Positions 31 to 42,187 are shown, numbered from the stretch's first letter. The stretch is DNA of 48,115 nucleotides from Thermoproteota archaeon (GCA_027491395.1 JAOZFI010000050.1:1-48115), one strand, 5' to 3'. Translations and numbers: made by a program. Notes: generated by a model not told the origin, from the sequence alone.

Positions 31-354
31 TCACTCCACTTCTATCTGTTCCTCAGGTATCCCCCACTTCTCCTTCAGTAGCTTGGCCACCTTGTACCTA
101 TGGTCCCCCTGCAGCAGCACGTATCCATCCTTGTAGGTGCCGCCGCACGCCAGTATTCGCTTCATTTCCTTCAGGAAAGATTTCATGGTCTCCTTGGAGA
201 AAGGTAGGTTCTCGATTATGGTGACGTCCCTTCCCCTCCTTCTCTCAGTCCTTATTCTCACGGGCCTGAGTTCCTTCTCAACTTCCTCCCAAGAGAAAAG
301 CTCGATCGGGAGGCCTGTTACCGGATCCCTCAATCTCTCGTCGAACGCAACCAT
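31..354 (-). CDS. translation initiation factor aIF1 (SUI1 family)
   Basis: 107 aa; SUI1 signatures RRGRDVTIIE, LACGGTYKDGYVLLQGDHR; archaeal N-terminal DPVTGLP; TATA-like element near 380-390. Confidence 0.93.
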   Translation of the reverse strand: MVAFDERLRDPVTGLPIELFSWEEVEKELRPVRIRTERRRGRDVTIIENLPFSKETMKSFLKEMKRILACGGTYKDGYVLLQGDHRYKVAKLLKEKWGIPEEQIEVE

Positions 355-436
355 TCCAAGCTATTCCGTCGCTGGGTGATATATAAAAACATATGGTCGG
401 GGTGGGAAGGTCCTCCCTGATTCGAGAATTGCCGGA

Positions 437-859
437 TCAGAAGAGACCAACAATGTTGCTGGCGGAGTCCATCCACCACCTGTTATACTCATCCCTCTTC
501 CTCTCTAACTCCTCATCCGAGTAGAAGGCGAACCTCACATCGGCAGATGACCTGAAGATCTCTAGGGTCTTGAGTTCCCCAACGTCCCAAACCAATCCAG
601 AGACTTGGGTCTTGAGCCAGTCTAGGGGGTTCTCCCCTTGGGGGGCGAGCTTGGAGGGCCAGTCCACCCTCCCCCTGAACTTGAGGTGGTATCTTCCATC
701 CTCTGTCTTCACTCCCTCAACCATGAATCCATCTAAATCCAGATCCAGCTTTCCCTCCTTTACTTCCTCTATAGATGCACCTAATCTCTCTAAAAAGGAC
801 CTAAGCTGATCTTCATCCTTGAATACGAGCTCCCCCTCTACTTCAACCTCTGAACTCAT
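437..859 (-). CDS. hypothetical acidic protein
   Basis: ORF 437..868, second ATG at 859 preferred; coding-like composition; no family recognised. Confidence 0.6.
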   Translation of the reverse strand: MSSEVEVEGELVFKDEDQLRSFLERLGASIEEVKEGKLDLDLDGFMVEGVKTEDGRYHLKFRGRVDWPSKLAPQGENPLDWLKTQVSGLVWDVGELKTLEIFRSSADVRFAFYSDEELERKRDEYNRWWMDSASNIVGLF

Positions 860-15100: not shown

Positions 15101-15371
15101 TTCTGAGGGTAATATCTACCATTTCACCCCTCACTGGAAGCAAGTCAGATGGATACAGGGCGTATCCCTCTCCGTCGACTAAAGTAACTAGTATGGCGTT
15201 GGCCCCCACGTCCTTGAGCTTTCGGAGCATCAAGGATGGATCGCAGGATGGGTCTGTACATGGATCATAGACTCCCAACTCTAAACTCTTCACCTTGTAA
15301 GTGGAAATTCCGATCTGTACATGAAGGGCGAGTGTGAGGAGAGCTAAGGTTAGAGCGTACTTCGAGCTCAC
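12147..15371 (-). CDS. large secreted multidomain glycoside hydrolase-like protein
   Basis: signal peptide; two TIM-barrel-like repeats (GYALYPS..ARKLGMMVYGW..HPEW..VDGIDIND; AHSLGMRVVVY..HKEWAQ..ADGVWLD); GH42 trimerisation-like segment (HFDVI..YDVLIAP); C-terminal S-layer-like module (LGGPAV, VAGVTRYGT). Confidence 0.65.
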   Translation of the reverse strand: MSSKYALTLALLTLALHVQIGISTYKVKSLELGVYDPCTDPSCDPSLMLRKLKDVGANAILVTLVDGEGYALYPSDLLPVRGEMVDITLRTIREARKLGMMVYGWVNIPHEVWLREHPEWIAVLSNGRSSDFYSSDYFHRIVPPSRIVRERECIDLLRGVAREVAALGVDGIDINDNFQFSDVYLEREDRSLLTSYDEFTVRAFERDTGVTVKGDSPEEWASFIEGNDQIRGKWVEWRAKQVTELIRIITSAARQVRPSIEVRPHLLIWDPLETYGIDFSGIAAVTGTLYVMIPSSESRLRHFKTVWKARQVASKVVASTYLSDLPVLSEEEARKRAFWIASAGADGIYIFWEGVGEERYGLMRAIFDEFRRVKDYQAPNWLKGARVVSVYTESPDVDISILRDQGVSLVELDVGLSSCDMLYRDFSKALETVKVITREAHSLGMRVVVYVPALEVVCDEPIHKEWAQVSLDGRRLVITGEELDVPWVEGGEFDLWMSPLSPHREILIDRVRKLMEVADGVWLDVPHLPEYLTEEMSDLWPDASDWGKEGFEEEYWVFSPSSTDDPSFPLWLRWRHDMALDFVLAVAEEAFSLGKVLLVESSACDAGATELGFDQVFLRYDPIIVLVPEIGPPTWEAGLSNASLSEWVHFYAMLKHARGSVRDGVIIPLTYGRDASDSAKQLGLLLPLADGFFETNSNGLMTGSVGVEFRKRAFWLVDMLSGMERSTRNRVGVLFSSFTRDFVDTYIAGPYDVEGTIHIRTFREVVRVLAEEHVHFDVIPIEMTSQSELSHYDVLIAPELRVLSREARSILASYRGKLLVLGKLGVLDESGGDVKELGVGARIDIESLPTFVRAQAGIPRGILVDRFGDKCEVLSLVNIEGVKGKIGVPRGWVLYFDLLTVEPASDHVDAPDTFLLIFVGDEGGYSKPKRAAITAFGVDRSLNADIISKIDAPFTSSGAVIRLGGPAVDPSWLNGEDFKFIQRSGVFVGIRVGNRTYISSFGDTDYSLIERMKCGNFTFYRVAGVTRYGTRAGLLWLVNKGVSNRLTLLEWTDDGNGAVELSEIKEVVKLGTGG

Positions 15372-26764: not shown

Positions 26765-27553
26765 TCAGATCTGGATGCCGAAGCCTTTTAAGATGAATCT
26801 AAGAGATACATAGAGAAATATTAGGCCAAAGAGAAGCTTTATCGCCCAAGATGGGGTCTTAGGCACCAGTTTAGCGCCTCCTTGAGCACCTATCGCGGTC
26901 CCTAGCCCTAGCAGCATAGCTGCGTACAGATCCACGTGGCCAGCTACCATCTTGAAACCTGCAGAGATCACGCTCATGGCTATGAATGATGCTAGGGAAG
27001 TGCCCACTGCTATCTTAACCGGGGATTTCAACAGGTATATGAAGGACGGGACCAGTGCATAGCCTCCGCCCAACCCGACGATGCCGGTCAATATACCTAT
27101 CAAGAAGCCCAACACCCCCTTTTGAGCATCGGATCCCGGGATTCTCTTCTCCGACACCGTCGAGGTGGGTGAGACCCTTCTAACCCCTTCATAGATCATC
27201 CTCAACGATGTGTAGACGAAGGCCAGACCTATTACCACGTTAAGTACGCTCGCTCTTTCCACCAAATACTCAAAGGCCATAGATCCAGCTAGAGCGCCAA
27301 TTCCTCCGCTGATCGTGATAACAGCGGCTGTCCCGTAGTCGACGTTCTTCATTCTTATATGGGCTATGCTACCGGATACCGCCGTTATAATCACTGCAGT
27401 AATCGTCGTTCCTATCGCAGCTGGAAGCTCGTAGTTGAACAGGAAGTACAGGGCTGGAAGCATGATTGAGCAGCCTCCTATCCCTAGAAGACCACCCACA
27501 ACCCCAGCCAGTAGTCCGAAGAGGAATATGACCACGGAGGAGAGCGGATCCAT
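26765..27553 (-). CDS. TauE/SafE (TSUP) sulfur-compound transporter
   Basis: two repeats GLLGIGGCSIMLP / GIVGLGGGYALVP, AIGT / AVGTS; ATG 27553 preferred. Confidence 0.9.
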   Translation of the reverse strand: MDPLSSVVIFLFGLLAGVVGGLLGIGGCSIMLPALYFLFNYELPAAIGTTITAVIITAVSGSIAHIRMKNVDYGTAAVITISGGIGALAGSMAFEYLVERASVLNVVIGLAFVYTSLRMIYEGVRRVSPTSTVSEKRIPGSDAQKGVLGFLIGILTGIVGLGGGYALVPSFIYLLKSPVKIAVGTSLASFIAMSVISAGFKMVAGHVDLYAAMLLGLGTAIGAQGGAKLVPKTPSWAIKLLFGLIFLYVSLRFILKGFGIQI

Positions 27554-27614
27554 TTCATGCACCGGATTCAATCTAAAACGCATTTTATAAGAATGATGTT
27601 TCATATTGAAACAT

Positions 27615-28217
27615 ATGAGATCGAGGATTCTAGACGATAGGGATCTGAGGATACTCACTCTCTTATCAGAAAATCCGAGGATACCGCTCAGCTCGCTGGC
27701 CAAGTTGCTGGGAATATCTCACACGGCAATCAGCAGGAGATTGAGGAGGTTAACGGATTCTGGTATCCTCAGACAGGCTGTCACCTTGAATTTCGATAAG
27801 TTACGTTTCAAAATAGCGATCATGCTCTTGGAAGTTGATACCATTAAGAATCTAAGGGAGATAGCGAGAAGGTTTGAGGACTGCCCGAGACTAATCCATC
27901 TATTTCAGGGGAGGGGTTCCCTTAACTTGATCGCGGTCATGGCCGCGGAGAACGAGGAGGTCCTGAACTCAATAACGGGTACTTGCATGATTAGGACCTA
28001 CAAGGGGGTGAGGAGGAGCGAGATAGTGGAAATAGCGGAGCCACTAGTGAACCCCTACCTCCCAATAGAGGTGCCCCGGATGGATATGGAATCGGCTCCT
28101 TGCGGTGCGGACTGCTCCTCATGCCCGAGGTATGTAGAGGAATCGTGCCTCGGATGTCCCAGCTTCGTGGGATACAGGAAGGCTGCTTTCGCCTACCGTG
28201 ACGGAGATGGAATCTAA
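27615..28217 (+). CDS. Lrp/AsnC family regulator with C-terminal Cys cluster
   Basis: LDDRDLRILTLLSENPR HTH; RAM-like domain; tail PCGADCSSCPRYVEESCLGCP. Confidence 0.88.
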   Translation: MRSRILDDRDLRILTLLSENPRIPLSSLAKLLGISHTAISRRLRRLTDSGILRQAVTLNFDKLRFKIAIMLLEVDTIKNLREIARRFEDCPRLIHLFQGRGSLNLIAVMAAENEEVLNSITGTCMIRTYKGVRRSEIVEIAEPLVNPYLPIEVPRMDMESAPCGADCSSCPRYVEESCLGCPSFVGYRKAAFAYRDGDGI

Positions 28218-30994: not shown

Positions 30995-32428
30995 TCACTC
31001 GAGCTCCTTTAGGATCCTCCTGACCATTTTCAGTCTCTTCTCCAAACCCTTTATCTCCCTCTGGAGCCTCCATATCCTCCACTTCACGGCTACCCTCTTC
31101 AAGGGGTTGACCCTCCTAGATAAAAGTGCCTCCACGATGTTCCTCCTGTCCTCTATCGCCGCTTCCAGTAAGAGGCTCGCCTCCATGGCTTCCGTCCTGT
31201 AGGGCTCTAGGTCCTCCTCTAAGAGACCAAGCTCCCTCTCGTACTCTTCTTTGAGCATCTGGTATACCGCTTCATCCATGACCTCCTTCCTGCCCTCCAA
31301 GGTGCTGAGCAAGTCCCTCATCTCATTCCTCCTCTTAACTAAGTCCTTAACGACATCTGACCTCAGTCTGGCCGGAGGTAAGGACCATATCTCAGGAGAT
31401 CTGACTGAAATACTCTTAATTCCTCTTTCCTTAGCTTTGACCCTAGATTTTGGGGCCCTCCTTACGAATTTCTTCTCACTCCTTCCTCTTCCACTCTCTC
31501 CCTTTATCCCCTCCTCTATCACCTCATCCTTCAACTTCCTTCCTGCATCCTCGGTCTCAGATACGGTGATCTCCGTCTGGATCGAGAGGAACCTGACCAC
31601 CTCTTGCAAGCTGGGAGGGGGTCTTGGCTTGGGATTCGGGGTGGAACCCAAGTGGGCGCTCTTAACACTACCTACCTTCACGAAACCGGGTCTGAAGGTG
31701 AAGGGCCCCTCCACATAAGCCACTCCCCTCTCGAGGCTGCTTATCCTCGAGGCCACGTCCTTGCTGAGCCCCAAGTACTGGATCACAGCGGACAGGTCCC
31801 TGATGTACTCTACCCTCAGGACGATCTTGTTCTCAGCCTGACTGAGCAAAGTCTTCGAAACCAGCTGGGGCCTCTGGGTTGAGAACATTAGCCCTATACC
31901 CTTTTTCCTCCCCCTAGTTGCCAGTGTATTCAGCCACGTTAGTGTGCTCATCGCCTCCTTGCCCAGGGTGCTTCCAGCTCCCTTCTCAGGAGCTAGCTCC
32001 TTGGCCTCATCCACCACGACTAGAAATCCATCCGAGCTTCCTATCTTCATCAGACCCTCAATGATTCCGGCTGCCAACTTAGTAGAGGTATCTGGCTTGT
32101 ACTTGGACATGTCGAGGATGAAGCTGACTCCCTTGACGGCCACCTGGGCTAATCTACTAGGGGAGGCTCTCGTGAGATCTACATCCCCATCGGGAGATAT
32201 AATAAGCATGTTGAATACATCAGCTAGGGAGGTGTGCTCTCCCTCCGGGTCTATGATACCTACGGGATAGCCCCTCTCCAGCAGCTCCTCAACCACCTTC
32301 CTTATGGTCCAAGACTTGCCGTAACCCGTTTTGGCTATAACGGCAGTCCTTCCCGTCACTAATTCGGCTATTTTCAGTTTAAATTCCTCTCCGCTATCGA
32401 TCTCCCGCCCTAGAACTATCGTGTCCAT
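30995..32428 (-). CDS. HerA/FtsK-superfamily (DUF87) ATPase with C-terminal coiled coil
   Basis: Walker A AKTGYGKS, IIDPEGEH, Walker B VVVDEA, RGRKKGIG, STQRP; no HAS barrel; charged linker and coiled-coil tail. Confidence 0.85.
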   Translation of the reverse strand: MDTIVLGREIDSGEEFKLKIAELVTGRTAVIAKTGYGKSWTIRKVVEELLERGYPVGIIDPEGEHTSLADVFNMLIISPDGDVDLTRASPSRLAQVAVKGVSFILDMSKYKPDTSTKLAAGIIEGLMKIGSSDGFLVVVDEAKELAPEKGAGSTLGKEAMSTLTWLNTLATRGRKKGIGLMFSTQRPQLVSKTLLSQAENKIVLRVEYIRDLSAVIQYLGLSKDVASRISSLERGVAYVEGPFTFRPGFVKVGSVKSAHLGSTPNPKPRPPPSLQEVVRFLSIQTEITVSETEDAGRKLKDEVIEEGIKGESGRGRSEKKFVRRAPKSRVKAKERGIKSISVRSPEIWSLPPARLRSDVVKDLVKRRNEMRDLLSTLEGRKEVMDEAVYQMLKEEYERELGLLEEDLEPYRTEAMEASLLLEAAIEDRRNIVEALLSRRVNPLKRVAVKWRIWRLQREIKGLEKRLKMVRRILKELE

Positions 32429-32469
32429 CGTAGGTCATCACTTCCCTGGAAATTTAAGGGGACCGGCGT

Positions 32470-32560
32470 AAAGTTAGAAAAATCAGATAAATAAAATAAA
32501 ATTAGATAAGTCTAAGTTAACTCCGTGAACTTTATGTTTCGCGTAACGATTTTAAGTTAT
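32470..32560. promoter_or_regulatory. AT-rich divergent promoter with inverted repeat AAGTTAAC-N3-GTGAACTT
   Basis: imperfect palindrome 32514-32532 upstream of TTTTAA TATA (about 32550); direct repeat AGATAA twice. Confidence 0.5.
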
Positions 32561-32614
32561 ACCATGCGTCAAGACATTACTACGACGGATCTCCCACCTC
32601 GGGAGGCCTGAAAT

Positions 32615-34567
32615 ATGAGGAAGATGTTCTGGTTACCAATCCTGTCCATAGCTGCGCTGACGTTGGCGTTCGCATTACTACCAGTGCTGGCTAACCCCGG
32701 GGAGGTCGGTTTCGGAGATGCTCAGAGCATCGAGGCATCAGCGCAGGAAGTTCTGGCTAGGGTGAGCCCGGAAACTAAGGCCTGTCTGAACTGCCACGCT
32801 GACCCCAATACTGTTAAGATGCAGGTTCCCTATTACGACTGGTTGAGGAGTAAGCACGCCTGGCATACTCCAGATGAACTGGAAGCCTATTACAGGAACA
32901 TCTTCGGAGAGGACGCCAATCTGGCCAGCAAGTTCAAGGGATACCCGTACGTCGTGGGATGTTATGAATGCCACGGAATGTTCGCCGATTCCGACAGGCC
33001 CGATGTCGTTGACCACAATGGCTACAAGATCGTGGTGGATGTGACCCCGAAGGACTGCCAGCAGTGTCACTATAAGGAGACCAAGGAGATGAGCTGGACT
33101 AAGCACGCGTTCGCCGCACTTAACGCTAACCTCAAGCCTTGGTACACCCTCGTACTCCAGAAGACCTATGGAGATGTCGCCAAGGCTGAATACGACAAGC
33201 TGTTCAAGGATGTGGTCGAGTGGCCGTTTTACAAGAAGTACGCGAAGGACTTCTATAACGGAGACGAGAAGGCCGTGAACGCGAGCAAGTACTACTTCTA
33301 CGGCGACAAGTTCAAGTTCGTATCGACCCTCTATCCATCTCACGGGATGCTCACTCACGAGGTGCCCAACCTGACCGCCAACTACTTGGGCATCGACTAC
33401 CACTTCATCATGGAGCACCCCAAGTACAACAACTCCTACGTTTACTTGGCCTGTATGGAGTGTCACGGCTCCGCAGTGCTACCGGCCAAGCCCAACGCCA
33501 TAGTTGGTGTTGACGCGCCCTATGCTAAGGTCGATGGCACTCCCGACATGGTGCTCCTCGGATGGCCCAACAACGGCGCTGGGAGGGTAAACCCCGACGG
33601 GAGCCTTGGCAGCTGCGCCACATGCCACACGAGACATACCTTCAGCATGGAGGAGGCTAGGAAGCCCCACACTTGTGGTCAGTGCCATCTCGGATATGAC
33701 CACCCGCAGATAGAGATCTACGAGGAAAGCAAGCACGGTAACATATACGATTCCGAGGGAGAATCTTGGAACTACACCAACCTGCCGTGGGTGCCCGGAG
33801 TGGACTTCAGGGCCCCGACCTGCGCTACCTGCCACATGAGCCACCTCGCCGACAAGAATGGCAAGATTATAGTGCCGGGAACTCACGACCTCGGAGCTAG
33901 GCTGACTTGGGAGATACAGGCCAAGTGGAGCTTCGGTCAGACGTACTATCCTGACCCACTGAACAACAAGTTCAATAAGAAGAGGCCAGACTGGAAGAAC
34001 CCGCTCACCATGGGCAACGCCGCCCTATCCTCGACTGACAACCCGAGGGGCAGGATGATGTCAGTGTGCAAGAGCTGCCACTCCAGCGAATGGGTGTACT
34101 CGTACTTCACTTGGTACGACAGCGTAAACATGGACTACAACATAACGTGGAAGTACGCAATAGACATGCTCAAGAAGGCCTACGAGCAGGGAATACAGGA
34201 GGATAGGAAGGGCCAGACCATAATGGATAGGAAGGCTTTGGGAGATGACACGGACGAGTACATGGAGATCATGTACTATTACATATGGCACCACGACGGC
34301 AGGAGGTGGAGGATGGGAGCCTCCATGATGGGTCCGGACTACACGCACTGGCTCGGTATAGTCGATACGGTCATGGACAAGCTAGGGAGGATGTCCGCCT
34401 ATTACGAGACCCAGCTCAAGATAAAGCAGCTGGAGAGCAAGGTTGAGAAGGTATCAGGAGCTGGCGTTGGCGCCGGAATGAACATGTTCACCTTCATAGC
34501 GACGGTGCTCTCTCTGGTGGCCATCGTGCTGGTCCTCATCGACATCCTAGTAAGGAGGAAGAAGTAA
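32615..34567 (+). CDS. octaheme cytochrome c, hydroxylamine oxidoreductase (HAO) family, membrane anchored
   Basis: signal peptide; 8 CxxCH (CLNCH, CYECH, CQQCH, CMECH, CATCH, CGQCH, CATCH, CKSCH); GRVNPDGSLGSC, GYDHPQIEIYEESKHG, GASMMGPDYTHW; C-terminal TM plus RRKK. Confidence 0.93.
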   Translation: MRKMFWLPILSIAALTLAFALLPVLANPGEVGFGDAQSIEASAQEVLARVSPETKACLNCHADPNTVKMQVPYYDWLRSKHAWHTPDELEAYYRNIFGEDANLASKFKGYPYVVGCYECHGMFADSDRPDVVDHNGYKIVVDVTPKDCQQCHYKETKEMSWTKHAFAALNANLKPWYTLVLQKTYGDVAKAEYDKLFKDVVEWPFYKKYAKDFYNGDEKAVNASKYYFYGDKFKFVSTLYPSHGMLTHEVPNLTANYLGIDYHFIMEHPKYNNSYVYLACMECHGSAVLPAKPNAIVGVDAPYAKVDGTPDMVLLGWPNNGAGRVNPDGSLGSCATCHTRHTFSMEEARKPHTCGQCHLGYDHPQIEIYEESKHGNIYDSEGESWNYTNLPWVPGVDFRAPTCATCHMSHLADKNGKIIVPGTHDLGARLTWEIQAKWSFGQTYYPDPLNNKFNKKRPDWKNPLTMGNAALSSTDNPRGRMMSVCKSCHSSEWVYSYFTWYDSVNMDYNITWKYAIDMLKKAYEQGIQEDRKGQTIMDRKALGDDTDEYMEIMYYYIWHHDGRRWRMGASMMGPDYTHWLGIVDTVMDKLGRMSAYYETQLKIKQLESKVEKVSGAGVGAGMNMFTFIATVLSLVAIVLVLIDILVRRKK

Positions 34568-34573
34568 GTTAGA

Positions 34574-34608
34574 GGAGCTAAACTCCCCCAACAACATTAT
34601 TTTTTATT
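34574..34608 (+). terminator. probable terminator after the octaheme gene
   Basis: short hairpin GGAG/CTCC followed by TTATTTTTTATT. Confidence 0.55.
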
Positions 34609-34629
34609 CGAGGCGTGAGGGATCCCCCA

Positions 34630-35670
34630 ATGAGAAAGCTAGTAGCGGCGCTGGCTGTCACGTCACTAGCGGATGCTGCAACCCTGTGGATCTCCCAGGT
34701 GTTAGGCCCGTTTCCTTCCGTGGTTCCCTTAGGAAATCCGACCGCTTACAGGAACCTGTATGTGCATGTCCCCATCTCAGTGTCTACTTATCTACTCTTC
34801 ACCTTGGGATTCTTCCTAGCGCTCTCCTACCTCCTCAAGGGAAAAGGATGGATGGAGGAGATGGCCCATTCCTTCATATTAGCGGGCCTCGTGACGGGCT
34901 TCTCCACCCTAGTCACCGGCATGATATGGGCATCGGAATCATGGGGCTCAGCTTGGAACTGGGATCCCAGAGAGACAGGGGTCCTCTTCATGTTCTTAGC
35001 CTTCTTAGTTTACTTGGCTGTCAGGTCTAGCATAAAGGACCCTGATGTGAGGCCCAAGGTATCTATGGCCTTCGCCGTTGCCGCCTACGCCACAATCCCA
35101 CTGAGCTTCTTGGTCCCCTACTTGATGCCCAGCCTGCATCCCACCATGCCGGAGACCAGCATGTTCATCAGAGGAGGGCTCACTCCCCTGATCTTCGGGG
35201 GCAGAATAATCTTGGTCTCACTGGAAGGAGCACTCTTGGCCCTTCTTATTAGATCCGGAGGTGTGAGAGGCGCTAAGCTTGCGGTCATCCCGGTGGTTCT
35301 GGTGGCCGTGCTGTTGCTAGCGATGCAGCTGCCCCCCAACTTGGCAGGGGGCGAGACTCTCAAGGTCCAGGTGATATCTGGCACGATGGAGAACGGGACC
35401 CTACATCTGAAGGTGAGGTCTTCTCAAGGAACTTACGACCTCCTCTACAAAGGGAAACCACCGATAAATCCGCTTTTCGTCACATTCGGTGGGGGGAGGA
35501 GGCTAACTCTGGAGAAGCACTGGCTGCTGGTGGAAGGGAGGGTCGAGGACGGTACCATAGTGGCGAGCAGCCTGAAGCTGATACCCTATTGGGGGAATCC
35601 CGTCAACGCGATGATATACGCGCTAACCCTTTTCACCCTCGCCTACCTAGCAGGGAGGGAGAGGAAATGA
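34630..35670 (+). CDS. ccmC: cytochrome c maturation CcmC with C-terminal extension
   Basis: YVHVP, WWD motif WGSAWNWDPRET, SLHP; extra soluble domain and TM after the CcmC core. Confidence 0.88.
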   Translation: MRKLVAALAVTSLADAATLWISQVLGPFPSVVPLGNPTAYRNLYVHVPISVSTYLLFTLGFFLALSYLLKGKGWMEEMAHSFILAGLVTGFSTLVTGMIWASESWGSAWNWDPRETGVLFMFLAFLVYLAVRSSIKDPDVRPKVSMAFAVAAYATIPLSFLVPYLMPSLHPTMPETSMFIRGGLTPLIFGGRIILVSLEGALLALLIRSGGVRGAKLAVIPVVLVAVLLLAMQLPPNLAGGETLKVQVISGTMENGTLHLKVRSSQGTYDLLYKGKPPINPLFVTFGGGRRLTLEKHWLLVEGRVEDGTIVASSLKLIPYWGNPVNAMIYALTLFTLAYLAGRERK

Positions 35671-36080
35671 AGGGAGTGTTGCTGGCAGCGTCCATAGCCT
35701 TGGTGGTCCTCTTGGTGGGATACATGGCCATAACCTCCAGCTCATATGAGCAGGTATCTCAGCTCGCCAAGTATAGGAAGCCCACGATGGTCACGGTCAG
35801 GGCCCTTGTGGCTGACATCAAGACCCTGCCCGAGAAGGATCTGATACTCTTCTTGCTGGAGGACGAGAACGGGAGCAAGATCTACGCCTTTTATGGCCTC
35901 ACTAGGTTTATCAGCCAGTACGGGGCCCCACCCTCTCACTCGACGGTGGAACAGGAGGTCATCATTAGGGGGATGTTCTATCCCGAGAGGATGGGAGATG
36001 TTCTGGGGAGGATGGAGATAAAGGAGATCCTGCAGGGGTGCCACAAGGCCTACGAGGCCCCTCCAGCCACGGGTGGTTGA
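35667..36080 (+). CDS. ccmE: heme chaperone CcmE, CxxxY (System I*) variant
   Basis: ATGA overlap with ccmC; N-terminal anchor, OB-fold, C-terminal GCHKAY. Confidence 0.8.
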   Translation: MKGVLLAASIALVVLLVGYMAITSSSYEQVSQLAKYRKPTMVTVRALVADIKTLPEKDLILFLLEDENGSKIYAFYGLTRFISQYGAPPSHSTVEQEVIIRGMFYPERMGDVLGRMEIKEILQGCHKAYEAPPATGG

Positions 36081-36710
36081 GTGATACTCGAGTTCAGGGA
36101 TGTGTGGAAGAGCTTCGGGAGCGGGTACGTGATAAGGGGGATCACCCTCTCCTTAGGAAGGGGGGAGCTGGTGGCGATAGTAGGCCCCAATGGTTCCGGG
36201 AAGACCACCATCCTGAGGCTAGCCTCGGGCCTCATAGCTCCCTCGAGGGGAGAGGTACTAGTGGAAGGGAAGGATGCCAGAAGCCCCGCTGCCAAGGCCC
36301 TCCTAGGTTATGTCCCCCACTATCCACCCATCTACGGAGACCTGACCGTTCGGGAGAATCTGATATATTACGCGGGCCTCTACGGATATGCTGACCTGTC
36401 CAACGTAGAGCCCATCTTGAAGGAGCTCGGTCTGGACGCCTTCTTTGACAGGAGAGTCGTCGAGTTGAGTTACGGGTGGAGGAAGAGGGTAGATATTGTG
36501 AGGGCCCTCCTCCACGACCCACCCCTACTCCTTATTGACGAACCGTTCTCCGGACTGGATGACGCAGGGAGGAGGTGGCTGATCGAGTTCCTCACCCGGT
36601 TGGTGTCAGCTGGCAGGACAGTGGTCATGACATCTCCAAGGGCGGATGTGGAGCTGGAAGCGAAGGTGTACGAGATCAGGGAGGGAAGATTGAGTGCTGC
36701 TACAGGTTAA
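36081..36710 (+). CDS. ccmA: heme-maturation ABC ATPase CcmA
   Basis: GPNGSGKTT, LSYGWRKR, LIDEPFSGLD; located in ccm operon. Confidence 0.85.
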   Translation: MILEFRDVWKSFGSGYVIRGITLSLGRGELVAIVGPNGSGKTTILRLASGLIAPSRGEVLVEGKDARSPAAKALLGYVPHYPPIYGDLTVRENLIYYAGLYGYADLSNVEPILKELGLDAFFDRRVVELSYGWRKRVDIVRALLHDPPLLLIDEPFSGLDDAGRRWLIEFLTRLVSAGRTVVMTSPRADVELEAKVYEIREGRLSAATG

Positions 36711-37338
36711 GAGGATCCTGTGGAAAGACCTGAAGCTCGAGGCTAGGAACCTGCCAGAGCTGGGCGGAGCGGCCATATTCTCGGTGGCATCGTCCAGCTT
36801 GCTGGGCTTCTCACTAAGCAGGTTGTCGGTTGAGGATCCCCTTCCCTTTGCAGGTACCGGCCTCATGCTCATCGCCCTCTTCCTATCGGTCTTCACCTCG
36901 GTCATGACCGTTGTGAGGGAGGAGGATCTTGGCACGCTGGATGGAGTCAGGATGTCGCCCGTCGAACCGGTAACCTTCTTCCTAGCGAAACTCCTTCTTA
37001 CTTTCATCCTGTTGGAGACCCTGATCACGCTGTCCTTCCTGACCATCGTGGGTCTGTCTGGCTGGACCGAGGGAGCGATCTACCTCTATTCCCTAGTAGC
37101 CTCATCCGGGGTCTATCTGGCGTCAATATCGGCCCTATCCTCAGCTATTTCCGTCTACCTGAGAGCGAGGGGAGTTCTCTTACCTACCATGATCCTCGTG
37201 CTGAGCCTCCCGATAATTCAGGAGACCCTCTCATTCCTGACCTCTGGGGATTACTCTCGAACCGTGATACTAGCTACTTCGGGCCTCTTGTTCTCACTGA
37301 TCGCCTCTTGGTTGGCTGGTTACATTCTGGAGGTGTGA
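36694..37338 (+). CDS. ccmB: heme-maturation permease CcmB
   Basis: KDLKLEAR, REEDLGTLD, LAKL, LLPTMILVLSLP. Confidence 0.88.
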   Translation: MLLQVKRILWKDLKLEARNLPELGGAAIFSVASSSLLGFSLSRLSVEDPLPFAGTGLMLIALFLSVFTSVMTVVREEDLGTLDGVRMSPVEPVTFFLAKLLLTFILLETLITLSFLTIVGLSGWTEGAIYLYSLVASSGVYLASISALSSAISVYLRARGVLLPTMILVLSLPIIQETLSFLTSGDYSRTVILATSGLLFSLIASWLAGYILEV

Positions 37339-37341
37339 GTA

Positions 37342-38409
37342 ATGAGGGTAAGCTATCAGAACATCTTGGCCATTGTCATCGTGCTGACGTCCGTGGGTCT
37401 CGGCCTCCTAGTCTCCTTCAGCAGCAAGGGTGTTGCCATACAGATCTATGCAGGGGAGCTGGACAGGCAGCTCAAGGAGGGAGTAGTGGCCGTCATGTTC
37501 TGGAGCGAGACCTGCTCCTCCTGCGAGTTGATGAAGCCCTACTGGATGCAGGTGGAGGCCTCTCCGCCCGAGGACGTCCGCGTGATGGATGTGCCCCTCG
37601 TTCCCGGGGAGACTGACCGGCTCTTCATGGAGTACGGGGTCACGGAGACCCCCACCTTCTTAGTCCTCAGGGAGGGCGCCGTGGTGGCCAAGATCGTGGG
37701 CCCGGTTCAGTCCGACGACCCGGCCCTATACTTCAGGAGATGGATAGAATCAGCTGCTAAGATGGCGAGTACCTCCGAAGAGCAGGTCACGGGATGGGAA
37801 CCGGCCACACTTGCCCTTCTCCCATTCTTGGGTGCGCTGGTCGCCCTATCTCCCTGCTCGGCGCCTATAGTCGCTGCCTACGCCACCATGAGGAGGGTGA
37901 GGGGGAAGGGAGATTACGCTGTCTGTCTGGGATCCTCGTTCTTCGGTACAATGGTTTTGGGTTCTCTCATGGTCGTTGCCGCTTCCTTCGTGGCGGGCCT
38001 CATCAAGGGATTGACCTTCGCCCTAGCCGTGGCCGCCATACTTTTCGGGTCGCTCACCATCTTCACTGCCTCTGAATCCTGTCCTTTACCGGGCCAGAGG
38101 GTGAGAGGGTTACTATCATCCGGCCTACCAGCGGCGTGCTTCAGCTTCGGTCTGGTATCCCTTCAGTGCAGCCTGCCCTTGCTCGCTGGCTACATAGCCC
38201 TCATAAGCGCGACCGGTGATGTGCTCGGCGGGGTAGCGGGCGTGGCTCTGCTCGCCCTAGGCATGGCAGCCGCGCTTGTCGCCTCCCTCTACTTGGCGAA
38301 GAGGGCGACCGGAGCCTTCTCCAAGGCCATGAAGAACCCCGCTTGGCTGGAGAGGATAAGCGGTGGTATTCTCGTAGCCTTGGGCATCTACCTCCTGCTT
38401 GTGGGGTGA
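37342..38409 (+). CDS. thioredoxin-CcdA/DsbD fusion (thiol reduction for cytochrome c maturation)
   Basis: FWSETCSSC..P and YGVTETPTF thioredoxin; CcdA-like TM domain with SPCSAP and QCSLP. Confidence 0.8.
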   Translation: MRVSYQNILAIVIVLTSVGLGLLVSFSSKGVAIQIYAGELDRQLKEGVVAVMFWSETCSSCELMKPYWMQVEASPPEDVRVMDVPLVPGETDRLFMEYGVTETPTFLVLREGAVVAKIVGPVQSDDPALYFRRWIESAAKMASTSEEQVTGWEPATLALLPFLGALVALSPCSAPIVAAYATMRRVRGKGDYAVCLGSSFFGTMVLGSLMVVAASFVAGLIKGLTFALAVAAILFGSLTIFTASESCPLPGQRVRGLLSSGLPAACFSFGLVSLQCSLPLLAGYIALISATGDVLGGVAGVALLALGMAAALVASLYLAKRATGAFSKAMKNPAWLERISGGILVALGIYLLLVG

Positions 38410-38413
38410 ACTC

Positions 38414-41400
38414 ATGCATTACACGGGATTGATAGCTCTTATGGGCGGCGCGATCCTCCTCGCCGACCTCGCTTACTCCTCGATCAAGAGGAGGATCATC
38501 AAGCTCGGACTCGTGGCCTACGCGATCCTCCTCGCCGACTGGCTCCTCTACGTGTGGGCCTTTGTGACTCAGGACTACACGCTCAAGCCCGTCTACGAGA
38601 CATCTTCCATAGGGCTCCCCCTCATGTTCAAGATAGCCTCGAGCTGGTCCAGCGGGGGCGGGAGCCTCTTCCTCCTGACCACGGTCCTGACCACCGTGGC
38701 ACTCATCCACAGGAGGTACCACAGGGATACAATGCTGAACGCCGGATACGGCGCACTGATAATCTCATCCCTAGCCCTGGCGTTCCTGAACGGTGCATTC
38801 GAGTCCTTCCACGGTGATGTGGCGACCGGCATGGGGCTGAATCCCCTGCTGAAGAGCCCTTGGATATATCCTCATCCCCTCTCGACCTTCACAGCCTACG
38901 CCTTGATCGCTGCCTCAGCCGTCTCCCTGTACAGCGGGCACGAGAAGGCAAGTGATCTACTGGCTAGGACCGGATGGCTCCTACTGACCTTGGGTATAGC
39001 TATAGGGGGCTACTGGAGCTACGTTACCTTCGGATGGGGTGGCTACTGGGCTTGGGATCCGGTGGAAACGGCTGAGTTGACTCCTTGGCTTGCCCTAACT
39101 GCGGCATTCCACGTCAAGTCCCTAGACAGGAAGCTCTCCTACGCTACTCAGATGGCCGCAGCGGGTAGCGTCTTCTTGGCTATACTCGTCACCAGGGTGG
39201 GCATCTCTCCCCTCCACAGCTTCGCCTCCCCCCAGTCCATGACCAGCGCTTTAACGCTTCTATTAACCTTCCTCTTCATAGCCGAAGGCATAAGAGGATC
39301 TCGAGGGGCTGGTATCGGGATAGGGAAAGTGACCTCCAGCCCCTACAGGACAGGACTCGTCCTCTCTTACTTCTCTCTGTTTATGATGTTCTTGGTGCTC
39401 TTCTCGGTGCTTGCTGGCGGGTCCATAGGCAGCGTCTTGGGTATGAGGGTCGATGTTCCACAGATGGACTCCGGTATAGAATTCTTTCACCAGTTACTTT
39501 TCCCCTTCGCCCTCCTGCTCATGGTCTCCCTCCCGATGTGTACCATAGGGGCGAGACTCGGATGGAGGGAGATACTGGGTGTCATTGAGGGCCTCTCAAT
39601 AGTGTCAGCTATCCTGCTCTACCTGGCCTTCAAGAGGGACATCATATGGTCACCGGCTAGCTCGCTCACCACGAACCTCATCATATCCATAATGCTTCCC
39701 TTCACCGTAGCTGGCCTCTTCTCAGGGCTGGCGGCCCTCTACATCTACGCTAGGGACAGGTTGAGTACCATGTCCTCGGTGTCGCTTCTGCATGCCGCCA
39801 TGGCCCTCACGATGCTCGGCGTACTCATGAGCGGACCCTTCGCCTACAACAGATCCTACTTCAGGGATATCACACTCCCCTACTATCGGGAGCTGGATGT
39901 GGACGGATTGGGGATGAAGCTTAAGGGATACGAGTACAGCCTCTACGGCGGTAAAGTGGACCTCTATACCCCCTACGTTGGGAGATCGGACATATACAGG
40001 AGGGCGAGCCTTACCATGCTCTCCTTGGCGATCAACTTCGGCGATGCCCTACGGGAGATGAAGGAGGGAGAGAAGCGACTGGAGGAGACCGGCATCCTAG
40101 GGATATATAGGGACCTCAAGGGGGGTGTCAGGATGAGTGGGAGCTACAGGGCCAACGCCAGCGCCGTCTTGACTGAGGTGAGCAATGCTTCCAAGGAATC
40201 CAAGGATTTGGGCGAGGTGTCCGTCTCCGTCTCGGATCCCGTGATTGCGTCCTTCTTGGGCGCCAGTGCTAATGAGACCACCCTCAGGATGATAGTAGTG
40301 GGAAACGTGACCCTCGGAGGGAACCTGACCTCGATTAGGGCCTCCCCAGCCGTGATGATTAACCTCACCTTCCAAAGACCCCTAATCCTGAACGCTCCCG
40401 AGGGGACGGTGGAGATAGGGAGGGCATCCATCGTATTCTTCGACATGCTGAAGCAGGGTCACTCCCTACCCAAGAACCTCAACGGCACCATAGTGGCCCC
40501 AAACTCGACTCTCGTGATAGAGAAGGGCGTTTATCACGGAGAGAGGGATGTGGAGATACCGGCAACCATTAGAGGGAGGGACGTGGTCCTCTACGTTGCG
40601 TTCACCCAAGGAACAATCTCCTCCGATGTCCTGAAGATACTCGAAGATCACGGTCTGTCCAGACTGCTTACCAACGAGACATTCGCCTCTAAGCTGTTGA
40701 GTGACCTGCTTCCAGGGAACTGTAAGGAGCTCGTCCACGAGCGTCAGGGGGCGGCCATCAACTGCCTAGGATACCTCCCAATACCGAAGGAGCTGCCGGA
40801 GGGTGCGAAGCTCTCCCTCACATTGGAGGCCGGAGACTCGGAGGAGCTTCTGGAGATAAGGTTCGATGCCAACGGCGAGGCTCAGGGCATCCACGGCCTA
40901 GTCGCCCACGTGCTGACCCTACCTAGCGGTCTGGGCGACCTTTACATGGTGTTCCATCCTCCCGTCGTCAAGGACAGGAAGTGGAGCATAGGCTTCCACG
41001 AGCTAATGGTTTACTACCTCCACGAATCGTTCAGGGGGCTTAACGAGGAGCAGAAGCTTGCCTTAGCTTCTCTCTTCGCCTCGGCTTACTTGGGTCAGTC
41101 CGTCCAAGAGGAGATGATGCTGCCCTACACGTTGGACCTCTACGATCTGGCCCACCGCTTCGATCCCTCTAACTCGACCCTCATGACCTCGGGCGCGTTC
41201 CTTCAGGTGAAGGTGATACCGTACGTCCAACTGCTGTGGTGGGGGATAATCCTAATGGCCCTTTCAGAGCTCTACCTGATCATAGAGGGGATGAGGAGAT
41301 CCAGAACGACCTCAGCCCCCGAGGAACAGCAGACCAACTTGAGCCGGGAGCCAGAGGGAGATGGGAATGGTGAGCCCGGGGAGGGACCTCCCGGCCCTGT

Positions 41401-41422
41401 AAAGGACCCAGAGAGTCAGTAG
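38414..41422 (+). CDS. ccmF: cytochrome c heme lyase CcmF with large extracytoplasmic insertion
   Basis: GLNPLL..HP, WSYVTFGWGGYWAWDPVE, TRVG..LHSFA, LLHAA, terminal PYVQLLWWG; about 1000 aa. Confidence 0.9.
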   Translation: MHYTGLIALMGGAILLADLAYSSIKRRIIKLGLVAYAILLADWLLYVWAFVTQDYTLKPVYETSSIGLPLMFKIASSWSSGGGSLFLLTTVLTTVALIHRRYHRDTMLNAGYGALIISSLALAFLNGAFESFHGDVATGMGLNPLLKSPWIYPHPLSTFTAYALIAASAVSLYSGHEKASDLLARTGWLLLTLGIAIGGYWSYVTFGWGGYWAWDPVETAELTPWLALTAAFHVKSLDRKLSYATQMAAAGSVFLAILVTRVGISPLHSFASPQSMTSALTLLLTFLFIAEGIRGSRGAGIGIGKVTSSPYRTGLVLSYFSLFMMFLVLFSVLAGGSIGSVLGMRVDVPQMDSGIEFFHQLLFPFALLLMVSLPMCTIGARLGWREILGVIEGLSIVSAILLYLAFKRDIIWSPASSLTTNLIISIMLPFTVAGLFSGLAALYIYARDRLSTMSSVSLLHAAMALTMLGVLMSGPFAYNRSYFRDITLPYYRELDVDGLGMKLKGYEYSLYGGKVDLYTPYVGRSDIYRRASLTMLSLAINFGDALREMKEGEKRLEETGILGIYRDLKGGVRMSGSYRANASAVLTEVSNASKESKDLGEVSVSVSDPVIASFLGASANETTLRMIVVGNVTLGGNLTSIRASPAVMINLTFQRPLILNAPEGTVEIGRASIVFFDMLKQGHSLPKNLNGTIVAPNSTLVIEKGVYHGERDVEIPATIRGRDVVLYVAFTQGTISSDVLKILEDHGLSRLLTNETFASKLLSDLLPGNCKELVHERQGAAINCLGYLPIPKELPEGAKLSLTLEAGDSEELLEIRFDANGEAQGIHGLVAHVLTLPSGLGDLYMVFHPPVVKDRKWSIGFHELMVYYLHESFRGLNEEQKLALASLFASAYLGQSVQEEMMLPYTLDLYDLAHRFDPSNSTLMTSGAFLQVKVIPYVQLLWWGIILMALSELYLIIEGMRRSRTTSAPEEQQTNLSREPEGDGNGEPGEGPPGPVKDPESQ

Positions 41423-42079
41423 GATACCTGCATCAAGGGCTGCCAAGGGTAAGATGGAGAGGTATGTGGGAAGGGACCTGAATGAGACCGCTGCAGCCAT
41501 GGAATAGCAGAACACATCCCCCATCCCCATGGAGACATCTCCGTGGAACACCATTAGGGGATCCAAGGGATCCTCTTGGGAGACCATCAGGAGCTCGCTC
41601 AACGGTCCCCTGAAGACTGAATAAGCATCGTATAGGGCGAGACCCCCGAGGAGGAAGTATATGAAGAGGTCATTGAAGAAGACCACGAAGAGGTAGGCTA
41701 GCGAAGCTGAGAGGAGTGACTTAGCCAAATTACCTATCAGGTCCCTGCGAAAGCTCAGCCAAGCGATTGCAACTGATATGAGTAGCTCTAGGGGCCAAGG
41801 AAATGATATGAAGGCGCTTATAAGGGTGTCCAAGGAGACAAGCGTCGAATAAACGAAGAAGATACCTATCATTATCCGTATAAGCCGAACCATCTTCCTT
41901 CTGACCAAGTAAACCATCAGGACGGCCATACCGAATACCAGCACTATGTAGACTAGAGAGAGGCCAGCAGACTCTTGAACAGATAGTTCGACTTCCGGCT
42001 GGGGTCTAGTGCTTAACACCACTAGTCCAGCAAATATCTCGGCCAGAAGAGGCCAGAGAATAACAGAATACCTTTCCAC
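41312..42079 (-). CDS. presenilin/SPP-family (GxGD) intramembrane aspartyl protease
   Basis: LYDAYSVF, MGMGDV, LPGL (PAL equivalent); GTG 42079 with GGAGG RBS. Confidence 0.87.
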   Translation of the reverse strand: MERYSVILWPLLAEIFAGLVVLSTRPQPEVELSVQESAGLSLVYIVLVFGMAVLMVYLVRRKMVRLIRIMIGIFFVYSTLVSLDTLISAFISFPWPLELLISVAIAWLSFRRDLIGNLAKSLLSASLAYLFVVFFNDLFIYFLLGGLALYDAYSVFRGPLSELLMVSQEDPLDPLMVFHGDVSMGMGDVFCYSMAAAVSFRSLPTYLSILPLAALDAGILLTLWVLYRAGRSLPGLTIPISLWLPAQVGLLFLGG

Positions 42080-42187
42080 CGCTAACCCTCCTTCCTCCCT
42101 ATTACCTGTCCACTTGATGACCACAACTGGCCAAGAGGTTTAAATTTCTTTACAAGAGAGTAGGAGCTGACAGGGTGCTTAAAAAAT

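Follow-up and report, generated by a model that had tools for sequence, protein, structure and literature searches.

The 48,115-nucleotide contig JAOZFI010000050.1 (the window, in which positions are counted from the first letter) carries a gene for an octaheme c-type cytochrome of the hydroxylamine oxidoreductase (HAO) family and, directly downstream, the genes of a complete archaeal variant System I cytochrome c maturation line, of which the cytochrome is the only multiheme client in the host genome. That genome (1.72 Mb in 62 contigs, 98.4% complete) is designated G000; the letters G, L, P and C stand for genomes, loci, protein relatives and contigs of G000, respectively. The features that carry the argument are these:

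32615..34567, + strand: octaheme c-type cytochrome of the HAO family (IhOCC/epsilon-Hao clade), 650 amino acids, identified by its open reading frame, Pfam and PDB matches and motifs
34349..34351, + strand: codon of Trp579 (in PDYTHW), equivalent by the epsilon-Hao signature to the cross-linking Tyr of oxidative HAO
34630..35670, + strand: ccmC, with the W-rich motif WGSAWNWD (PF01578, 92.0 bits, cut-off 29.9; TIGR01191 below cut-off)
35667..36080, + strand: ccmE-like heme chaperone, 137 amino acids, with an N-terminal helix, an OB fold and a GCHKAY tail (CxxxY variant)
36081..36710, + strand: ccmA, ABC ATPase (TIGR01189, 127.7 bits, cut-off 131.6; generic ABC domain 107.9 bits)
36694..37338, + strand: ccmB, ABC membrane subunit (PF03379, 25.0 bits, cut-off 24.9)
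37342..38409, + strand: fusion of an anchored thioredoxin (CSSC) with a CcdA/DsbD-like, six-helix thiol-reductant transporter, the CcdA part assigned by motif and topology
38399..41422, + strand: ccmF heme lyase, 1007 amino acids, WGGYWAWD (PF01578, 62.4 bits, cut-off 29.9; TIGR00353, 105 bits, below cut-off)

Eight CxxCH motifs had been noticed in an earlier note on this DNA, made from the sequence alone, and translation of the open reading frame (ORF) together with a motif count confirms them and the coordinates of the gene. All 16 cysteines of the protein fall within the eight motifs (C57, C116, C148, C280, C334, C354, C403 and C485), and motifs 4 and 5 are separated by ~50 residues (C280 to C334). 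The N-terminus has a hydrophobic, signal-like segment (residues 7-25) and the C-terminus a membrane helix (residues 628-646) that is preceded by a helical spacer of ~50 residues; an Asp362-His363 pair, Met571 and Trp579, which figure in what follows, are all present. The protein is an exported, C-terminally membrane-anchored octaheme cytochrome c of the HAO family. When CxxCH motifs are counted over the ORFs of at least 60 amino acids in G000, the octaheme gene is the sole one with two or more. Exactly one motif occurs in seven ORFs, none of them cytochrome c-like (they comprise a glycyl-tRNA-synthetase-like protein, a ferredoxin, Trm112-like, SdhB-like and MoaA-like proteins, and two unlikely ORFs). 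The ccm line therefore has one visible client, which supports the description of the locus as self-contained. The cytochrome gene is under strong purifying selection (dN/dS ~0.06 in comparison with L006, at saturated dS), has no internal stops in seven genomes, and retains every motif in 10 of the 11 korarchaeal loci; the other locus is interrupted by a contig end.

The six genes that follow it on the + strand, ending at 41422, are tightly packed or overlapping and all intact. That they form a dedicated maturation operon, as had been proposed in the earlier note, is borne out by the profile and motif matches to ccmC, a ccmE-like gene, ccmA, ccmB, trx-ccdA and ccmF. The ccmC ORF opens at a GTG at 34615, with the conserved ATG at 34630 the likely start, and its product extends beyond the family core by ~110 beta-rich C-terminal residues plus an extra helix (35257-35667). 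CcmA and CcmB are borderline on their specific models; their position in the operon supports the assignment. Cys172 and Cys266/276 of the CcdA-like part of the thioredoxin fusion lie within hydrophobic segments. CcmF is laid out as a membrane core of ~480 residues, an extracytoplasmic insert of ~455 residues (485-935), a last helix and an acidic, Pro-rich tail. The insert matches no family, and an Atlas look-up (0.81-0.83) provides a weak lead to CcmF_C. Both the full-length form of CcmF and the extension of CcmC are common to Desulfurococcales homologues. No CcmH was found in the operon (the operon alone, and not the genome, was searched), which contains no further ORF, and the CcmF insert and CcmC extension may take the place of CcmH and CcmD, which are missing.

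The gene between ccmC and ccmA starts with an ATG that overlaps the stop of ccmC. Its product has a membrane helix at residues 4-22, a modelled OB fold (predicted local distance difference test, pLDDT, 81) that superimposes on OB domains over 98 residues (Z 11.0, root-mean-square deviation, rmsd, 2.9 Å), and a C-terminal GCHxxY that is invariant in 9/9 sequences. These features fit the CxxxY variant of CcmE that belongs to the variant System I of Archaea (Allen et al. 2006, as cited in PMC4429474). The protein has no match in Pfam (E up to 5) or in NCBIfam (E up to 1), a profile search of solved chains found no solved CcmE, and no CcmE chain is among the fold matches listed for its model. All of its 33 relatives in a large protein collection are unnamed or 'hypothetical'. 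Its gene, too, has a low dN/dS (0.04-0.16, dS saturated).

The earlier note had assigned the cytochrome to the HAO family and compared it with the Ignicoccus octaheme protein, and both points are supported. Pfam PF13447 is matched with 81.9 bits (cut-off 21.9; E 5.9e-23). Among solved chains, a sequence search finds 4qo5_A, an Ignicoccus 'hypothetical multiheme protein', as the best match (E 2.4e-61, lifted to E 6.3e-109 by a profile of 32 sequences), followed by 6h5l_A, a reductive Kuenenia HAO-like protein (E 5.7e-21), the Nitrosomonas HAO, NeHAO (4fas and 1fgj, E 2.7e-15), and anammox HAO and hydrazine dehydrogenase chains; the remaining rows, at E of at least 0.01, are noise. Identity as a hydrazine dehydrogenase was considered and is ruled out (55 bits on an NCBIfam equivalog model with a cut-off of 900). 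The AlphaFold model of the full-length octaheme has a mean pLDDT of 67.9 and, in Foldseek, TM-scores of 0.26-0.40 with rmsd ~20 Å for whole-chain matches; with such values it is unfit for residue-level reading. Good superposition by VIA-align is limited to residues ~340-615, over which the model aligns with 4qo5 at Z 17.2, with 4fas_A at Z 15.8 (rmsd 3.2 Å, 236 residues) and with 6h5l at Z 14.3, the best unrelated chain scoring Z 6.3; the NeHAO entries (1FGJ, 4FAS, 4N4N) span Z 15.2-15.8 and rmsd 3.2-3.4 Å.

A phylogeny had been suggested as a check in the earlier note. The tree (IQ-TREE quick, 47 sequences, 588 columns) gathers seven korarchaeal sequences into a clade (SH-aLRT 100) that is sister to 24 Desulfurococcales sequences (SH-aLRT 100), with both clades apart from the Archaeoglobi-type and bacterial short forms. 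This position rules out a recent acquisition from Desulfurococcales by horizontal transfer, the korarchaeal clade being sister to the Desulfurococcales sequences and not nested among them. The second octaheme of I. hospitalis (P0038) is closer to the korarchaeal protein (43% identity, 500 bits) than is 4QO5; since P0038 matches 4qo5 at just 274 bits, it is a paralogue of the latter.

The epsilon-Hao signature (Haase 2017, as relayed in PMC8940962) is a Trp at the key Tyr position together with a conserved Met eight residues before it. The octaheme reads GASM(571)MGPDYTHW(579), so that Met571 precedes Trp579 by exactly eight residues. Among 121 relatives, over which all conservation counts were taken, Trp579 is conserved in 120 and Met571 in every one, and both residues are present in all full-length korarchaeal orthologues (10 of the 11 loci). 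Asp362 and His363 align in sequence with D267/H268 of NeHAO chain 4fas_A, which we take to be the distal pocket pair at the catalytic heme, and are conserved in 119/121 and 121/121 relatives; retention of this pair supports a catalytic rather than a purely electron-carrying protein. The earlier note had located Trp at the Tyr-equivalent site by a 'motif-level alignment' that we could not reproduce by sequence; the placement itself finds backing in the signature and in the structural alignments. VIA-align matches model residues 343..614 with 4fas_A 244..502, residues 340..615 with 4n4n_E 265..527, and residues 343..611 with 1fgj_A 243..499. End-anchored counting on these three NeHAO ranges, which passes back through one continuous model helix (574-615), puts the cross-linking Tyr, presumably Tyr467/491 in NeHAO, at residue 579 in each case, although this is range arithmetic and not residue alignment. 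The structural comparison that had been recommended points, by this counting, to Trp579, and the octaheme very probably has no cross-linking Tyr.

Comparison with characterized systems brings out what is familiar and what is not. The Ignicoccus protein IhOCC (4QO5), described as a nitrite-reducing octaheme lacking P460 (PMC9250108), shares with the korarchaeal octaheme the HAO order of its eight hemes, a GWPNxGxGRxNPDGSxGxC stretch between hemes 4 and 5, an alignable C-terminal G-x-x-M-x-G-x-D-aromatic motif, association with the membrane and, very probably, the lack of a P460. It differs in sequence (~25-32% identity in structural alignments) and has Phe at the position of Trp579 and Trp at that of Tyr576, and its host, unlike G000, makes its own heme and has further cytochromes. 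The Desulfurococcales octahemes (from Pyrolobus, Hyperthermus, Pyrodictium and Thermodiscus metagenome-assembled genomes, MAGs) are closer, with 39-48% identity, and likewise have a membrane helix at the C-terminus. From the invariant Trp to the anchor, the spacer spans 50-52 residues in 4/4 korarchaeal proteins, whereas the Desulfurococcales forms have a median of 193 (103-221), a figure taken over the 53 anchored members among the 60 longer relatives (P0004-P0063). Nine of the 20 Desulfurococcales loci fetched have at least one specific ccm gene in the flank; one of them, L010, has all six in the same order, divergent from the cytochrome rather than, as here, on the same strand. An ORF with four CxxCH is present at 6/20 of these loci, and L011 and L015 have a full module after the cytochrome, consisting of a tetraheme protein (NapC/NirT-like, at low score), an NrfC/PsrB-like FeS protein, a 417-residue membrane protein and a monoheme protein.

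The epsilon-Hao proteins of Campylobacterota have, like the korarchaeal octaheme, Trp at the Tyr-equivalent site and Met eight residues before it, and four of them are described as reducing nitrite and hydroxylamine with negligible oxidation (PMC8042395). Kuenenia HAOr (Kustc0458, 6H5L), the second-best solved match, is likewise an HAO without the Tyr cross-link, and the same account has it reducing nitrite to NO, and also NO and hydroxylamine, without oxidation (PMC8042395). It differs in forming a dodecamer with a diheme partner, Kustc0457, no counterpart of which is found in G000. The short relatives (P0064-P0120, mostly bacterial by source names; ~440-560 residues) are ~37-43% identical over 75-94% of the octaheme, with an anchor detected in 14/57. 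NeHAO has the same fold over the C-terminal half, and 7/8 heme motifs and the Asp-His pair align; it is unlike the korarchaeal protein in being oxidative, with a Tyr cross-linked to heme 4 in an adjacent subunit, and in the distance between heme motifs 4 and 5, which is ~10 residues (from partial alignments) in place of the ~50 found here. The maturation line resembles the archaeal variant System I in having CcmA, CcmB, CcmC, CcmE and CcmF, a CxxxY CcmE and no CcmH in the operon, and departs from it in a CcmE without family match, the CcmF insert, the CcmC extension and the fused Trx-CcdA.

Potential electron donors are encoded elsewhere in the genome. Contig C43 (69691-85146, L041) carries two outward-facing enzyme sets, an [NiFe]-hydrogenase and then an FdnGHI-FdhE-like formate dehydrogenase. 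The hydrogenase set comprises a small subunit with a twin-arginine signal and a C-terminal helix, a 589-residue large subunit (PF00374; NF033181 at 286 bits, below cut-off), a membrane protein, an HdrD-like FeS protein and maturation genes; the formate-dehydrogenase-N-like set comprises a 1207-residue catalytic subunit with a twin-arginine translocation (TAT) signal (TIGR01553 at 456 bits, below cut-off), FDH-beta, a cytochrome b gamma subunit and FdhE. These enzymes would allow direct extracytoplasmic donation, and reduction of the Ignicoccus octahemes by that organism's own hydrogenase has been reported (PMC4429474). Among the 21 species genomes of the genus, the hydrogenase is found in 12, including 8/8 of those that carry the cytochrome, and formate dehydrogenase in nine, including 6/8 carriers (one by a partial match). 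The absence of a nearby quinol-dehydrogenase partner, remarked on in the earlier note, holds and is extended by the CxxCH count and a module search to the whole genome: the tetraheme/NrfCD-like donor module of Desulfurococcales has no counterpart anywhere in G000, where just its FeS protein has relatives, the PsrB subunits of two Psr-like loci. These very similar sets (C28:112099-115008 and C32:1564-4481), with molybdopterin, 4Fe-4S and NrfD-type subunits, are broken by contig ends, suggesting a repeat that disrupted the assembly.

The genome combines this demand for heme with an apparent lack of heme synthesis. HemA (PF05201), HemB (PF00490), HemC (PF01379) and HemD (PF02602) have no match in G000, although the same families are matched in 10-12 of 14 control genomes. 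HemB was not found in any of the eight cytochrome-carrying genomes (86-99% complete), nor were HemC and HemD in four further carriers, G002, G003, G008 and G012 (4/4; 98-99% complete). Within the genus, HemB is found in G004, where HemC and HemD adjoin it and serve as a positive control, and as a fragment in G005. A published table lists K. cryptofilum without hem genes, and Ignicoccus and Hyperthermus with them (PMC3004389, Table 1). An FdnI-type cytochrome b (PF01292) is a further heme protein of G000. Lacking a hem pathway, the organism would have to import heme or make it by a novel route; we consider that it is probably scavenged.

The host is Korarchaeum-like, as judged from the ilvC gene of the contig, whose nearest named relatives are from 'Candidatus Korarchaeum sp.' (82 and 81%) and K. 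cryptofilum (78%), with Pyrodictium a small margin below (76%). The cytochrome is present in 8 of the 21 species genomes, in none of the 4 from the family's other genera, and elsewhere weakly. By ilvB identity the carriers that have an ilvB match form a tight group, 88-97% identical to this contig, with most of the genomes that lack the cytochrome at 63-69%; G003 carries the cytochrome and has no ilvB match. ccmF and the CcmE profile mark the same eight genomes and G004, and two other genera of the family each have ccmF in a single genome. The earlier note had judged that this capacity would be unexpected if the host were korarchaeal: the host is so assigned by ilvC, and the unexpectedness is diminished by the presence of the locus in 8/21 genomes of the genus and of ccm genes in two further genera. 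The locus is typical of its lineage in public MAGs; no published description of it was found in the literature on cytochromes and heme in Korarchaea, judged largely at the level of titles and abstracts.

What the maturation operon serves differs from one korarchaeal lineage to another. In G004, of the same genus, and G023, of another genus of the family, it has the same order, ccmC-E-A-B-trxccdA-F, and different upstream cargo:

L037:12157-12840 and L038:16245-17282, - strand: C_GCAxxG_C_C domain (PF09719) protein with two CxxCH, upstream of the ccm operon, in G004 and G023

One of these two GCAxxG-diheme cargo proteins has a TAT-like signal. In two cytochrome-free genomes the syntenic site reads ilvC-ilvB-trxccdA-(MATE-type gene)-presenilin homologue-ABC transporter, and at L033:12489-13436 (+), in a cytochrome-free genome, an intact Trx-CcdA of 315 residues (36% identity) retains CFNC, SPCS and QCNLP motifs. 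This lone Trx-CcdA may be what survives of a ccm operon that was lost, or its gene may have been resident at the site before the operon assembled around it. In G003 the cytochrome and ccmCEAB are on one contig, and trxccdA-ccmF, beside the presenilin homologue, on another. The simplest reading is of an ancestral ccm operon at this site, exchange of its cargo, and loss in the hot-spring-type lineage.

The explanation that we favour, to which we give an even chance of being right as a whole, is that of a reductive octaheme held near the membrane, built with scavenged heme, and serving as a detoxification enzyme or auxiliary electron sink. The apoprotein would be exported by Sec; its eight CxxCH would be held in reduced form by Trx-CcdA, and CcmC, CcmE and CcmF would attach heme to them on the outer side of the membrane. 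That heme would presumably be acquired from the environment, because G000 lacks a tetrapyrrole pathway. The mature protein would be an HAO-type trimer that a short helical spacer keeps near the membrane, a homotrimer built on the C-terminal helices being assumed. With Trp in place of the cross-linking Tyr and the distal Asp-His pair kept, it would therefore act as a reductase at heme 4. The substrate would most likely be nitrite, hydroxylamine or NO, although we put reduction of nitrite-type substrates at about even odds. Electrons would probably come from the TAT-exported [NiFe]-hydrogenase, from formate dehydrogenase or from the quinone pool, and the role would be detoxification, or that of an auxiliary sink, rather than a main respiratory pathway.

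A number of observations weigh against this explanation. Around the presumed catalytic region itself (residues 319-376) the octaheme model has pLDDT below 50. HMMER never aligned the Tyr467 region of NeHAO to the octaheme and no alignment extended past chain residue ~405, whether the query was the full protein, the 32-sequence profile, the epsilon-Hao-like P0102 or the C-terminal 142 residues, and the sole HAO chain matched by the last of these was 4qo5, at E 3.3. Tyr576, three residues before Trp579, is conserved in all full-length korarchaeal orthologues (10/10). The hydrogenase is found also in four genomes without the cytochrome. G000 showed no gene for producing nitrite or for processing it further, and Hcp, a candidate for downstream reduction of hydroxylamine, was not found there. 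The four molybdopterin matches comprise the formate-dehydrogenase-like enzyme on C43, the Psr-like proteins beside NrfD on C28 and C32, and a fourth on C52. If donor and acceptor reactions were both outside the membrane, no proton gradient would be gained. We do not know of N-oxide respiration in Ignicoccus, which has the closest relatives. Reductive HAOs have His instead of Trp at the key site in an alignment given in PMC12758564, and this His could be the adjacent His578; and the discoverers of the Ignicoccus octahemes themselves refer to the in vivo role of these proteins as speculative (PMC4429474).

Chief among the alternatives is the proposal that the octaheme is mainly an electron relay, a membrane-tethered trimer forming a 24-heme conduit for extracellular electron transfer, with N-oxide chemistry as a side activity; hydrogenase, formate dehydrogenase or the quinone pool would supply its electrons, and sulfur species, Fe(III) minerals, Psr-like reductases or partner cells would receive them. 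We regard it as possible, if on the whole unlikely. The Ignicoccus octahemes are described as abundant, located at membranes and reduced by hydrogenase, and an electron relay is what the authors propose (PMC4429474); the Pyrodictium delaneyi octaheme is reported from both nitrate- and ferrihydrite-grown cells (PMC8105010) and has a tetraheme/sulfur-reductase-like neighbourhood, its homology to the korarchaeal octaheme being inferred from that neighbourhood pattern. The anchor and spacer, the Psr-like NrfD complexes of G000 and the absence of visible nitrogen-cycle partner genes also suit a relay. On the other hand, the near-invariance of Asp-His and Met/Trp across the 121 relatives fits an active site better than a wire, G000 has no second multiheme cytochrome or outer conduit, and the 50-52-residue spacer, so much shorter than in Desulfurococcales, holds the octaheme near the membrane. 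A sulfur oxyanion reductase (for sulfite, thiosulfate or tetrathionate) with a role like that of MccA or OTR in a sulfur-rich vent is improbable. For this clade, no sulfur substrate is known to have been demonstrated; the octaheme groups with HAO and IhOCC rather than with MccA or OTR, and MccA is aligned on helices only (Z 4.8, against 12.7-17.2 for HAO-family chains). What speaks for such an enzyme is that sulfite or tetrathionate is acted upon by multiheme nitrite reductases and by MccA and OTR, octahemes related to them (PMC9250108), the presence of Psr-like reductases in G000, and a TauE/SafE-family gene (26765-27703) 5 kb upstream, which is absent from the syntenic locus L002.

The conserved Tyr576 invites the thought of an oxidative enzyme, with a P460-type cross-link formed by that residue and hydroxylamine or hydrazine as the substrate. 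Position 576 is, however, Tyr in 33 and Phe in 27 of the 60 longer relatives and Trp in 41/57 short forms, and with such variation a covalent cross-link there is poorly fitting. Moreover, counting on the NeHAO ranges gives residue 579, the solved relative 4QO5 has no P460, and both published alignments, as far as they are set out in PMC8940962 and PMC12758564, put Trp or His at the key site, so that we consider an oxidative role very improbable. That the cytochrome and its ccm genes are a decaying relic, fallen out of use in a lineage without heme synthesis, we find scarcely credible. The missing hem pathway is consistent with decay, as are the sister lineages that lost the cytochrome and most of ccm and kept trx-ccdA at the same site; against it stand the low dN/dS of the cytochrome and ccmE genes, the reading frames free of internal stops, the preservation of eight heme motifs and six ccm genes, and the FdnI-type cytochrome b, which is encoded besides.

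A more specific construction can be put upon the reductive octaheme, and we offer it as a speculation that is rather unlikely to be right in full: a clade of marine, Korarchaeum-like tetrapyrrole auxotrophs would build a membrane-tethered, trimeric, 24-heme reductase of HAO type, fed directly by the outward-facing hydrogenase or formate dehydrogenase, as an extracytoplasmic shunt from H2 (or formate) to nitrite, hydroxylamine or NO that runs on borrowed heme. It would have no quinol dehydrogenase, and the ccm line, serving GCAxxG-diheme cargo in sister lineages, would have decayed to a single trx-ccdA in the hot-spring lineage.

The components are of known kinds: a reductive HAO/IhOCC-type octaheme and an archaeal variant System I. 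Their context is unusual in its single client, absent heme pathway and absent donor module, its short tether, and a cargo that differs between sister lineages. Korarchaea are uncultured, and their one well-studied genome has been read as that of a peptide fermenter without cytochromes. The vent clade of the Korarchaeum genus has a predicted surface-exposed multiheme enzyme with a full assembly apparatus, and therefore, it would seem, an extracytoplasmic redox reaction that would be missed, or mislabelled 'hao', in genome-scale metabolic calls. A large heme demand without a pathway predicts that heme is exchanged in vent biofilms, and added heme may aid enrichment. The locus also offers a minimal natural system, with one client and one line, for the archaeal CxxxY CcmE and the long CcmF, and it sharpens the question of the physiological role of Ignicoccus- and Pyrodictium-type octahemes, which has been open since their discovery.

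There remain the signals that flank the cytochrome gene and the neighbouring genes.

32429..32614, + strand: intergenic region shared with the divergent HerA-like gene, A/T-rich at 32470-32565
34568..34592, + strand: inverted repeat of 11 pairs directly after the cytochrome stop, not conserved in more distant korarchaeal loci
34597..34608, + strand: T-rich tract TTATTTTTTATT, with a T6 core (34600-34605) that is invariant in 6/6 korarchaeal loci

A GGAGG (32602-32606) lies eight bases before the ATG of the cytochrome, and CTCCC...GGGAG at 32590-32607 can pair across it, forming a possible small hairpin over the translation start. The T6 core is located 24-30 nucleotides before the conserved ATG of ccmC, and the T-rich tract may terminate the cytochrome transcript as an oligo-T signal, provide a TATA-like element from which ccm would be transcribed without a leader, or do both. 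High expression and a terminator of its own had been ascribed to the cytochrome gene in the earlier note. A hairpin and an invariant T6 do follow the stop, but the hairpin is not conserved and a scan for consensus terminators shows no excess (6 sites, against 6.4 in shuffles). The enrichment of C-ending codons is real (C3 of 0.408, the 97th percentile of 1093 long ORFs); since ccmF and trx-ccdA show it equally (0.411), it is not a specific sign of high expression, for which it makes a weak argument.

Divergent from the cytochrome lies a gene (30995-32428, -) for a HerA/DUF87-type P-loop ATPase whose C-terminal half is long, charged and coiled-coil-like. It accompanies the cytochrome locus in L002, L005, L006 and L028-L032, in G003 it is near trxccdA-ccmF, and no orthologue was found in five genomes without the cytochrome. 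As a part of the system it was considered and set aside: it co-occurs with the locus, but no functional link was found. At the other end, a gene at 41312-42124 (-), whose 3' end overlaps that of ccmF by ~110 nucleotides, encodes a polytopic membrane protein of 270 residues with YD and GxGD-type motifs (LYDAYSV, GMGDV) and a weak match to the archaeal presenilin-family protease model NF041679 (28 bits, cut-off 125). Since 55-58% identity is kept in genomes without the cytochrome, this presenilin homologue is regarded as a core gene outside the system. Farther upstream, a gene at 12147-15371 (-) encodes a protein of 1074 residues with a GHL10-type glycosyl-hydrolase-like domain at residues 48-262, the remainder of which matches no family.

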